DNA of 7,927 nt, taken from a virus. Its lineage: Monodnaviria; Loebvirae; Hofneiviricota; Faserviricetes; Tubulavirales. This document shows, piece by piece, positions 815 through 2,827 of this stretch (the stretch's first letter is position 1; the number at the start of each line of letters is the position of its first letter). The position numbers and the translations under genes were made by a program. The notes under the pieces are model-generated. The model saw only the letters and a program-made list of their open reading frames with translations, was not told the DNA's origin and did not search any database. The DNA is taken from the IMG/VR virus record IMGVR_UViG_2663762849_000002; one strand, written 5' to 3'.

Positions 815-2827
815 TCAGGGACAGTTATTGTCACAAGTCCAAGGGTCGGCTTCGCCGCCCCCACCCGCCGCGCGGGAGCGCGTCGTGCGGTGTCGTGAAG
901 CCGACGAAATAAACACAGATTCATAGCTGCTGCCGCTTCTGACTTCCTCTGCGCGGATTTTTTCTGCGGGGGTCATACGGCGGACAACACAGCCCATAAA
1001 ACGGGTTATGACCGGAACAGGGCCAAACATGAAACCGGAAATCACCGGTGCGCAGGGTTCACCGTAACGGTTAAAACGGGGTTTACCACCTTCCTGCGGC
1101 TGAACGTAAAAAGGACGAAGCAGACGTTCAGAACAGAAGAAACCGCCGTTCAGCAGGATATAGGTCCGGAAATCGCCTGCATCACAGGCCATGCGGATGG
1201 CTTCCAGTTCGGCGACCTGCTGCGGCGTGAACTGCTGCATATTGATATGATGCGCCTCAAGCGGTGCGCGGAAGCTGCGCATCTGGCGGTAAGCCGTGAC
1301 GGACGGAACGCCAAAGAACTGGAACAGGCGAAGGCGCGTTGCTTTCTGCCAGCAGGCGGCACGGCTGACGGCATCACAGAATGAACGGGCAGAATAACGG
1401 TCATTCAGGGCGGTAATACCATCCGCACTGACATCACCCGCCATTTTGGTGATGTACTTCACGATGTAACGGAAACCATCACCCTTTTCAGGGTCAATAG
1501 CCTCAATACGAATGCGGTGCTCTTTCGCCCCCTTTTCATCCGGCTCATCGCGCATGGCCTCTTCACGGAAAATAGCGAGCACCGTTGCGCTCTCATGGGG
1601 ATTGCAGTAAATCAGGAAATTCCAGTGCGTTGTACCGTCAGCATGAGGCTCGACCGTGCGCAGACCGGGTATCTGAATACCGGCTTTATCCAGTCTGCGG
1701 CAGACCCGACGCCAGACGGTATTCAGCCAGGCGTGCGAATCCTTAACGGTCGGGCAACCTGCTTCCCACCATTTTTTATTCGGACGAGAATGCCATTTTC
1801 CGGCAACCTTAAAACTGGTCGTCGGGTGAAAACGTGACGGCGTGGTGAGCACGATGAAGTAGCCGGACAGCCCCATATCTTCGGACAGTTCACAGACGGC
1901 CTTTCCACGAACGCAGAGTTCAGCAATCCGGTTTTTCGGATTCGAAACAGAGGCGTTATGCGCATCTTCCAGCGTACAGACCAGCTCATTAAACGCATCA
2001 AAGACACCGGAGGACCGGAGATACTTTTTCACGCGTTTACTGCTGACAGCAAACAGGTCACGATGCCAGTCAGAAATATAAGGCGCGTTGCGGTTCAGTA
2101 TGCCGAGCATGCGACAGACCTCATTAACCCGCTGGTCACGGACAACCCGCAGGAAACGGGTGACAAAAGCCAAATCAGTCAGACGCTTAAGCAATCCCTC
2201 ATCGCCGTAACGCTCATGATAAGTGGCATAAACGGGTGCGAAATCAAAGCCGGAGATGGCCCGAAAATAGGCCATCACATTGAGAAGGTGATGCTCTGGT
2301 ACATCACTATAAATGGCCCGGGAAACAAGGCAGTCACGAACAACCGAATCAGCCACCTCAGCAATCTGCTCATCAGTGCAGAAAAGCGAGAATTCATAAG
2401 GGTCTCCGTCCTGATTGAAGAAAGCAAAACGGTGCGCGGACTCAAGCGCCATCAGCGCATTTTTCACACCGAGCTGGTAAACCAGACGGCAGAAAGCATG
2501 CGCCACGGTGAACGAAAACGAGCCAAACTGTGATACCAGTCCGGCAGCCCTGCCCCTGTCAGCGAGAGATAAATCCGTGCAGTTAATTCCGTAAATCACA
2601 CGGTCAACCTGCGTGTTACGTGGCAATGCGAGCTGTGAAGATAAGGTCCCGACCTCATCACGATACTGGCGGGAAAGCGTGGCAAGGTTGCGGGTGGCAA
2701 CATCGCGCTCAGTCCGAAAATGCTCGCGTTCGGGCAGCGTCAGGCAGGGACGACCAAGGGCAACGGATGCCGCGTCGATGGCGTTATACGCTGTAAGGAT
2801 GGCTGATTCAGTCACTAATCCCCCCAA
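815..2827 (-). CDS. rolling-circle replication initiator, phage P2 gpA family
   Basis: 699-codon open frame. Motifs align to recalled P2 gpA: [11 protein letters not shown] (P2 TLTAPSKYHPT), [22 protein letters not shown] (P2 [22 protein letters not shown]), RYIVKYITK (P2 YIAKYISK; Y-x-x-K-Y catalytic tyrosines). No in-frame ATG near the 5' end; the ORF track starts at TTG 2914, inside the operator. Start placed at TTG 2827..2825 with AGGT SD at 2838..2835 (7-nt spacer); GTG 2815 is an alternative. Confidence 0.85.

Follow-up and report, generated by a model that had tools for sequence, protein, structure and literature searches.

Introduction

HUH nickases start the replication of many phages, plasmids and single-stranded DNA (ssDNA) viruses and are used as tags for coupling DNA to protein. 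In the Ff filamentous phages the origin lies in the intergenic region and not in the gene of the replication protein (Rep), and the Reps in which glutamine takes the place of the second HUH histidine (HUQ), as far as is known, keep the threonine of motif I. In phage P2, the origin (ori) is located within gene A (PMC3986222). For Rep-class enzymes it has been proposed that motif I positions the HUH residues, and in circovirus-type Reps the second HUH histidine is a glutamine (PMC10288648). The crystal structure of the Rep of porcine circovirus 2 (PCV2) in complex with ssDNA revealed Mn2+ bound via Glu48, His57 and Gln59 of the HUQ motif, and the Rep of wheat dwarf virus (WDV) was found to use an unexpected glutamate as third metal ligand (bioRxiv 10.1101/2020.09.01.278671). 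Here, we analysed a stretch of 7,927 nucleotides from a virus of the Tubulavirales (IMG/VR record IMGVR_UViG_2663762849_000002; the whole stretch is referred to as the window), which carries a gene for a Rep related to the P2 gene A protein (gpA) whose motif II reads H-W-N.

We consider it probable that this protein is a working two-tyrosine rolling-circle initiator of the P2 gpA family with a natural active-site variant, asparagine at residue 399 and valine at residue 322, and that it still binds its metal. A first-pass annotation of the window had suggested either an altered metal site or an inactive Rep, and had proposed alignment with the gpA family, prediction of the active-site structure and a search for the cognate nick site, all of which were performed.

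Results

The Rep of the window is a divergent member of the gpA family

The Rep gene and its active-site motifs are located as follows.

815..2815, minus strand: coding sequence of the Rep (replication endonuclease), 666 amino acids, GTG start at 2815 and TGA stop at 817..815
1835..1858, minus strand: motif I, F320-I-V322-L-T324-T-P-S327, with Val in place of the first Thr of the F-x-T-x-T typical of the family and with T324 kept
1607..1651, minus strand: motif II, E389-P-H391-A-D393-G-T-T-H397-W-N399-F-L-I-Y403; the HUH reads H-W-N
1621..1619, minus strand: codon of N399, AAT
1445..1468, minus strand: motif III, Y450-I-V-K453-Y454-I-T-K457, with two catalytic tyrosines

Alternative in-frame starts are TTG at 2914, which yields the longest open reading frame (ORF), and TTG at 2827, the start used in the first-pass annotation. 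The start at 2815 is the one chosen by RefSeq for the identical prophage gene of 2001 nucleotides in Escherichia coli 100416, and it is an ATG in the relatives L005 and L088. The protein matched the Pfam family Phage_GPA (PF05840) with 165.6 bits (cut-off 31.4, E 1.8e-48), residues 240–490 being placed on profile positions 73–316 of 321, and phrog_91 ('nicking at origin of replication') with an E-value of 1e-127. Taken together with the inovirus morphogenesis genes on the strand of rep, which encode Zot/pI, pIII-like and pVI-like proteins, these matches bear out the earlier description of a gpA-family Rep within a filamentous-phage gene set. The Pfam search yielded no match of the Rep to PF05144, the family of the Ff gene II (G2P-type) proteins, and the score against PF23343 (REP_ORF2-G2P) was 17.4 bits, which is below the cut-off of 27.8. 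A sequence search of the PDB with the Rep likewise returned no match.

A search of 5.8 billion clustered proteins with the Rep yielded 38 relatives at 40–98% identity, followed by a sharp fall to about 30% (E. coli, Salmonella, Morganella, Providencia, Xenorhabdus). Motif II reads H-W-N in all 37 aligned close relatives (at least 40% identity) and H-x-H in every remoter protein. This H-W-N clade, made up of Enterobacterales inoviruses, represents the divergent part of the family, with PF05840 scores of about 153–166 bits versus 292–410 bits in canonical members. YPO2274 has been found experimentally to be required for the production of YpfPhi (PMC4266046); we therefore looked for a link to the filamentous phages CUS-1/YpfPhi of E. 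coli and Yersinia, and the clusters of the H-W-N clade contained no Yersinia member.

The H-W-N motif is fixed in a clade under purifying selection

The Rep was aligned with the P2-type A protein (KC618326), the HP1 Rep, orf698 of phage VFJ and an RstA-like protein of the CTXphi type. Homology to the gpA family is solid, and both peptides quoted in the first-pass annotation, residues 390–399 of the Rep and the corresponding segment of P2 gpA, are exact. The statement made there that two histidines of the motif are replaced applies to one of them: His 399, the second histidine of HUH, is not conserved in the Rep of the window, whereas residue 392, a histidine in P2, is H, Q, K, A, R, V, T or N across the family and lies outside HUH. 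The motif II segment reads VEPHQDGTPHHHMLLF in the RstA-like protein and AEPHKDGTPHWHALAY in the HP1 Rep. The conserved catalytic residues comprise E389, H391, D393, H397, Y450, K453, Y454 and K457. Moreover, none of the 56 aligned sequences deviates at Y450, Y454 or K457, in line with the earlier remark that the tyrosines of Y-x-x-K-Y are kept. The features of the HUH superfamily from which the Rep departs are the H-U-H of motif II (H397-W-N399) and the threonine of motif I (V322). An insertion of five residues after motif III (M458-A-G460-x-x) is confined to the H-W-N clade.

Over 86 genomic loci, motif II reads HWH in 77, HWN in 7, HNH in 1 and HHH in 1, the codon of Asn399 being AAT in six loci and AAC in one. 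Finished E. coli chromosomes contain H-W-N as well, as do metagenome scaffolds and a cluster of 2063 sequences at 90% identity. The ratio of nonsynonymous to synonymous substitutions (dN/dS) of rep within the clade amounts to 0.07–0.25 (Nei–Gojobori, whole gene), with dS ranging from 0.02 to more than 2. The H-W-N motif is thus old and fixed in a protein under purifying selection, which argues strongly against inactivation or error.

Residue 322 of motif I switches together with residue 399

When the 37 H-W-N sequences were compared with 19 H-x-H sequences, residue 322 of motif I was the sole other active-site motif position that switches completely, being valine in 37/37 and threonine in 19/19, respectively. 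For a wider view of the family, 1.84 billion cluster representatives were searched without word filters (E ≤1e-3), which yielded 1909 members, and the best 150 of these 1909 were aligned. Among 149 representatives the pair of residues 322/399 is T/H in 137, V or I/N in 10, I/H in 1, N/H in 1 and T/N in none. Position 399 is accordingly a histidine in 139 representatives, 137 of which carry T322, and N399 occurs only with valine or isoleucine at residue 322 (10/10). This pairing is what the proposal that motif I positions the HUH residues predicts (PMC10288648).

A neighbour-joining tree was calculated from the catalytic core after removal of residues 322 and 399; it is crude, and the distances are large. 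In this tree the six N399 representatives of the window's clade are monophyletic, and the nearest neighbours of the other four (P0170, P0225, P0232 and P0247) are H-W-H proteins. The branching would correspond to up to five independent origins of the N/V combination as an upper estimate, with two as the safe minimum. None of the four proteins belongs to an inovirus: they are encoded on metagenome contigs whose neighbourhoods contain integrase/excisionase genes or are otherwise prophage-like, and they keep Y-x-x-K-Y, E389/H397 and an intact origin core (see below). In two of them, P0225 (locus L095; E-P-N-H-D-G-T-P-H-W-N) and P0232 (locus L094; E-V-N-H-D-G-T-P-H-W-N), the nearly invariant H391 is changed to asparagine. 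E419 was considered as a compensating new ligand and rejected: although all members of the close clade carry it, P0150 and the four independent N399 proteins have H, A, L or Y in its place.

The predicted fold places motif II on a beta-hairpin

The AlphaFold2 model of the Rep, based on a 49-sequence alignment, has a predicted local distance difference test score (pLDDT) of 89.5 and a predicted template modelling score of 0.86; residues 630–666 are disordered (pLDDT <50). The best structural matches of the predicted domain (pLDDT 90.2) are Helraiser, SIRV1 Rep, MVM NS1, AAV5 Rep and RepB, and the model confidently predicts a Rep-class HUH fold with the motif order I, II, III. Motif I resides on strand 317–323, E389-P-H391 ends strand 384–390, H397-W-N399 starts strand 396–404 of the same beta-hairpin, and the tyrosines are on helix 448–459. 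We infer that residues 322 and 399 are close to each other, and the geometry of the ligands is deduced in the same manner. Since E389 is invariant and precedes H397 by eight residues, E389/H397/N399 is the likeliest metal-binding triad. No description of an H-U-N variant was found in the literature searched, the coverage of which was incomplete.

The N-terminal 240 residues of the Rep form an all-helical domain, predicted with high confidence, that lacks a Pfam assignment and is conserved only within the H-W-N clade. This domain may be the part that binds the origin hairpin.

A homologous origin core is present at the 3′ end of rep

The search for the cognate nick site revealed two elements at the end of the gene.

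843..820, minus strand: origin core (presumed nick region), CTTGGACTTGTGACAATAACTGTC, 23–24 nucleotides, overlapping the last eight rep codons (P-W-T-C-D-N-N-C-P)
845..905, minus strand: GC-rich inverted repeat/hairpin just 5′ of the core, with perfect arms of nine nucleotides at 845–853 and 897–905

The core is unique in the window, has one mismatch to the family consensus and was matched in 0 of 200 shuffles. The Rep is predicted to cleave DNA that carries CCTTGGACTTGTGACAATAACTGTCC. Folded as plus-strand ssDNA, the hairpin (905..845) has a free energy of -30.2 kcal/mol (z -4.8), and it lies within the codons of the disordered C-terminal tail of the Rep. In 86 of 95 rep copies of the family the core is found on the rep strand, 0.8–1.3 kb 3′ of the HUH codons, and five of the nine copies without it are on contigs too short to reach its position. 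In the H-W-H group the core occurs in all three reading frames (35, 25 and 11 cases); it is internal to the rep ORF 34 times, spans the stop codon 28 times and lies past it 9 times. It therefore represents a DNA element and not a protein motif, which in turn explains the disordered C-terminal tail of the Rep in the model. Every member of the H-W-N clade examined keeps the core with 1–3 mismatches. Many relatives likewise have a hairpin that ends at the core but differs in sequence, the mean z being -2.6 for the 70 nucleotides upstream versus 0.0 downstream (n = 83); the VFJ hairpin has a perfect stem of 27 bp. From these comparisons, the origin would consist of a variable binding hairpin and a universal cleavage core.

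In the P2-type gene the core reads CTCGGAGTCCTGTCAATAACTGTG and is homologous to that of the window. The sequence GCGCCTCGGAGTCCTGTCAA, which we take to be the P2 ori, is found once, inside the P2-type A gene, and in the protein alignment the P2 ori segment A-P-R-S-P-V-N-N-C stands opposite the last residues of the Rep of the window.

Two further properties of the core were observed. Position 13 is A in 15/15 Enterobacterales H-W-N loci and T in 65/71 H-W-H loci. Coevolution of N399 with the origin was rejected as an explanation, as T is found at this position in all four independent N399 lineages and also in P0150, the deepest member of the clade and an inovirus within a chromosome of 3 Mb; judged by its distribution, the A is a sub-clade marker only. 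Positions 7 and 10, two nucleotides apart, covary, with C...G in 60, G...C in 21 and one exception among 82 distinct loci (e.g., L001 2903 and L002 2079). This looks like a Watson–Crick constraint within the nick region and calls to mind the intramolecular base pair of the U-shaped ssDNA to which the PCV2 and WDV Reps bind.

The Rep is part of a dif-integrating prophage

The remaining features of the window are the following.

7803..6517, minus strand: pIII-like adsorption protein (Phage_Coat_A, PF05357)
6517..6158, minus strand: pVI-like ORF, 119 amino acids
6141..4930, minus strand: Zot/pI morphogenesis ATPase (Zot, PF05707; phrog_1675)
between the Zot/pI gene and the small divergent ORF: non-coding/repeat region
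3398–3499, minus strand: two inverted dif-like sites, AGTGCGCATAA...TTATGTTGAAA and an imperfect mirror
2963..3151, plus strand: ORF of 62 amino acids divergent from rep (phrog_2503, E 1e-28), a candidate repressor
2886..2920, between rep and the divergent small gene: 16-bp direct repeat TGCACAAATGCAATTG, 2.2 copies (Tandem Repeats Finder), a candidate operator
359..784, minus strand: ORF of 141 amino acids directly downstream of rep (phrog_30648, E 1.6e-94)

A megablast search of complete E. coli genomes detected the prophage in a handful of human-stool isolates at 91–98% identity. E. coli 100416 (NZ_CM128593) harbors two identical copies of 8.7 kb arranged head to tail and adjoining ydeP/ydeQ/ydeR, a second E. 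coli strain, 2015C-4136CT1, likewise contains a tandem array, and a more distant relative adjoins hipBA. Both neighbourhoods, ydeP/ydeQ/ydeR and hipBA, mark the dif region of E. coli. The metagenome scaffold L005, which has unit length (8.7 kb), carries the same 11-nucleotide XerC-arm repeat at both ends. The tandem copies and this scaffold speak for circulation of the element. When folded as plus-strand ssDNA, the pair of dif-like sites in the window gives an extended hairpin with bulges (-40.8 kcal/mol, z -10.5) that resembles attP of CTXphi in its folded form. By its attachment site, the element is a dif-integrating, CTXphi-like prophage that is predicted to use Xer recombination. In some E. 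coli relatives we also observed a gene for an IS110-family (DEDD) transposase directly upstream of rep (9200–10165 in L089 and about 7919–8872 in L091–L093). Their integration sites are distant from dif, either in murP or in the interval from ymdA to csgC, which suggests that the IS110-family gene provides this phage lineage with an alternative integration module.

The 62-residue ORF occupies the position of rstR in CTXphi and is annotated likewise in the prophages of E. coli 100416. The regulatory module (2819–3402 in the window, 96–958 in L005) is unlike between phages that are otherwise 98% identical: the window and E. coli 100416 contain the 62-residue ORF and the 16-bp repeat, and L005 and L006 contain a protein of 153 residues with an HTH_3 domain in that place. 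In sequence, the difference looks like a swap of immunity regions as for rstR in CTXphi. A scan of positions 2750–3250, upstream of rep, for the sigma-70 consensus gave no match, nor did a search of the window against Rfam. The ORF of 141 residues is located where other inoviruses have an ssDNA-binding or RstB-like gene; it had no match in the Pfam profile search. It is conserved together with rep, which it also follows in L005, L087, L088 and L090.

The window contains tandem duplications that span positions 3687–4128 and 4182–4916. A unit of 145 bp is present three times, 99% identical, and corresponds to a segment of the secretin gene of L005 (7474–7625); a unit of 339 bp is present 2.2 times in the spacer between Zot and secretin, and a piece of 60–70 nucleotides of this unit is also found on many small E. 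coli plasmids.

Discussion

We regard the family membership of the Rep, its predicted fold, the conservation, the coupling of the two substitutions, the purifying selection and the presence of an origin as established. Under the reading that we favor, which is in essence the altered metal site suggested in the first-pass annotation, with the second HUH histidine replaced and both tyrosines kept, the Rep would recognise the origin contained in the 3′ terminus of rep itself, where the hairpin (905..845) precedes the core (843..820) on the coding (plus) strand. The enzyme would nick the plus strand with Y450 or Y454, at a position within the presumed nick region that we place only provisionally, and would remain attached through a 5′-phosphotyrosine. 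Host polymerase would then extend the 3′-OH, and the second tyrosine would close the displaced circle. E389 and H397 would most likely bind the metal together with N399, whose carboxamide oxygen would contact it directly or via water, parallel to the Glu–His–Gln site of circovirus Rep. Val322 stands where the motif I threonine accompanies the second HUH histidine in canonical members.

Several observations weigh against this reading. The Rep is predicted to be active on the strength of conservation and purifying selection, the H-W-N clade having no experimentally studied member, and the sequence search found no solved structure. Moreover, a close relative was found among 50,697 deposited phage genomes neither by DNA nor with the neighbouring protein of 141 residues. 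Asparagine is shorter than histidine or glutamine, which makes direct ligation of the metal by N399 uncertain, and the assignment of GCGCCTCGGAGTCCTGTCAA to the P2 ori is provisional, as is the nick position. In addition, when compared with the intact relatives L005 and L087, the window copy does not contain the complete inovirus gene set: about 289 nucleotides covering the major-coat region are absent, and of the secretin gene, which encodes 402 amino acids in both relatives, only three 145-bp copies of one segment are left. Positions 1–146 are a fragment of mdtD (99% identical), an E. coli core gene for a major facilitator superfamily transporter present in 5423 of 5426 complete genomes, and this fragment is joined straight to phage DNA. 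The junction and the rearrangements stem either from a real prophage with an aberrant insertion or rearrangement, or from a chimeric assembly. The locus as a whole may not make phage even with an active Rep. Both the rep gene and the origin of the window are undamaged and share 98% identity with their counterparts in intact elements.

Three other explanations were weighed. It is rather unlikely in our view that the Rep is active without N399 as a ligand, the metal site having been rebuilt from E389, H397 and either H391 or D393, or from two ligands and water. Residues N399 and V322 would then just fill the space of the lost His–Thr pair, and the metal preference would possibly be changed or nicking lowered. 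In favor of this, H391 and D393 show little or no variation and reside on the same hairpin as H397, the pattern H-x-D-x3-H-x-H resembles the three-histidine motifs of relaxases, the side chain of asparagine is about one bond shorter than that of the glutamine in the HUQ precedent, and the unexpected third ligand of the WDV Rep illustrates the plasticity of such sites. However, P0225 and P0232, which belong to independent N399 lineages, carry H391N, so that H391 is no universal substitute ligand, and the asparagine is strictly invariant and never Ser, Ala or Asp (10/10), which suggests a specific chemical role.

That the Rep is catalytically dead, as the first-pass annotation had considered, the prophage being copied with the chromosome and the gene either decaying or kept for origin binding or immunity, appears improbable. 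The canonical second histidine is indeed absent, the copy in the window is part of a rearranged, probably defective element, and no phage of the H-W-N clade has been isolated. Nevertheless, the low whole-gene dN/dS extends across lineages with saturated synonymous divergence, N399 is invariant in the clade, and so are both tyrosines, both lysines, E389 and H397. Furthermore, none of the clade members examined has lost the origin core, two strains contain identical tandem copies of the prophage, and the same two-residue change arose repeatedly. The idea that N399 is an artefact, due to a sequencing or assembly error or to a misalignment that shifts the real HUH, can for practical purposes be set aside: although the window shows signs of assembly problems or rearrangement elsewhere, the occurrence of H-W-N in independent sequences already refutes it, the alignment around VEPHxDGTxHW is ungapped and unambiguous, and the strand has no other H-U-H in the vicinity.

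With regard to its family, the kind of element that hosts it and its job, the Rep of the window is largely ordinary. New with respect to the literature that we searched, which was covered incompletely, are the conserved H-U-N site and its strict, recurrent pairing with the change from threonine to valine in motif I. As a tentative proposal, which we regard as possible rather than likely, H-U-N with a motif I valine could represent a recurrent alternative active site of the gpA family with up to five origins, maybe altering the metal chemistry of the nickase. As a hard-oxygen ligand, asparagine may favor Mg2+/Mn2+ or may shift the balance between cleavage and religation, and selection for restrained nicking may have favored H-U-N in elements that are temperate or replicate chronically. 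If true, the strict pairing would be direct evolutionary evidence that the motif I threonine positions the second HUH histidine. The paired change from His to Asn and from Thr to Val provides a testable statement on the role of motif I and on the tolerance of the metal site. Moreover, the survey indicates that one short core combined with a variable hairpin is in use throughout the gpA family, in P2-like myoviruses as well as in filamentous phages, and the shared core makes the origins of uncharacterised prophages easy to locate. For annotation, the lesson is that a missing canonical HUH should not be equated with a pseudogene.

Comparison with known systems

The gene A protein of P2, 186 and HP1 shares with the Rep of the window the family PF05840, the motif order I–II–III, the signatures E-P-H-x-D-G-T-x-H-W and Y-x-x-K-Y, and a homologous origin core that lies within or at the 3′ portion of the gene for the initiator. 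In contrast, the identity is only about 24–30%, and PF05840 is matched much more weakly by the Rep of the window (166 versus 410 bits). The Rep differs further by H-W-N instead of H-W-H, by valine instead of the motif I threonine, by the five-residue insertion after the tyrosines, by the lack of the C-terminal extension, which places the origin at the very end of the gene, and by its host, an inovirus and not a myovirus.

The gene II protein of the Ff phages (M13, fd and f1) performs the same job in the same kind of virus. The canonical gpA members pass the threshold of PF23343, the core shared with G2P-type initiators, and the Rep of the window remains below it. The gene A protein of phiX174 is likewise a two-tyrosine HUH initiator, but it belongs to another Pfam family, and no significant sequence match was obtained. 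Its 30-bp origin, which we take to be CAACTTG/ATATTAATAAC, nicked after ACTTG, resembles the core of the window, ACTTG-TGAC-AATAAC.

The HUQ-type Rep of circoviruses and nanoviruses (e.g., that of PCV2, PDB 6WDZ) provides the precedent for an amide that replaces the second HUH histidine in a functional enzyme with a Rep-class HUH fold, and its glutamate about 8–9 residues before the first histidine corresponds to E389. In contrast to the Rep of the window, it contains glutamine and not asparagine, one tyrosine, a fused superfamily 3 helicase and an origin with a nonanucleotide in the hairpin loop, and there is no detectable sequence relationship between the two beyond the superfamily.

The best matches among deposited phages, with 30–31% identity, are the Rep of fs2/VFJ (orf698), whose match covers 81% of the query, and the RstA-like protein of a CTXphi-type RS2 element of Vibrio cholerae VCE232. 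Within inoviruses, PF05840 is matched by VFJ (genus Saetivirus; annotated as similar to fs2 orf716) with 364 bits and by the RS2 element with 292 bits, and Zot genes accompany gpA-family members in prophage loci of Photobacterium, Xenorhabdus and Salmonella. Replication modules are exchanged freely among inoviruses (PMC6813254). The mosaic noted in the first-pass annotation is thus nothing unusual, gpA-type Reps being already annotated in VFJ/fs2 and RS2. The VFJ and RS2 Reps differ from the Rep of the window by a canonical H-N-H or H-H-H, by the motif I threonine and, in their origins, by T instead of A at core position 13. Like the Rep of the window, they are gpA-family proteins in an inovirus, with a hairpin and the same core at or just after the rep stop codon and with the same layout of repressor and rep.

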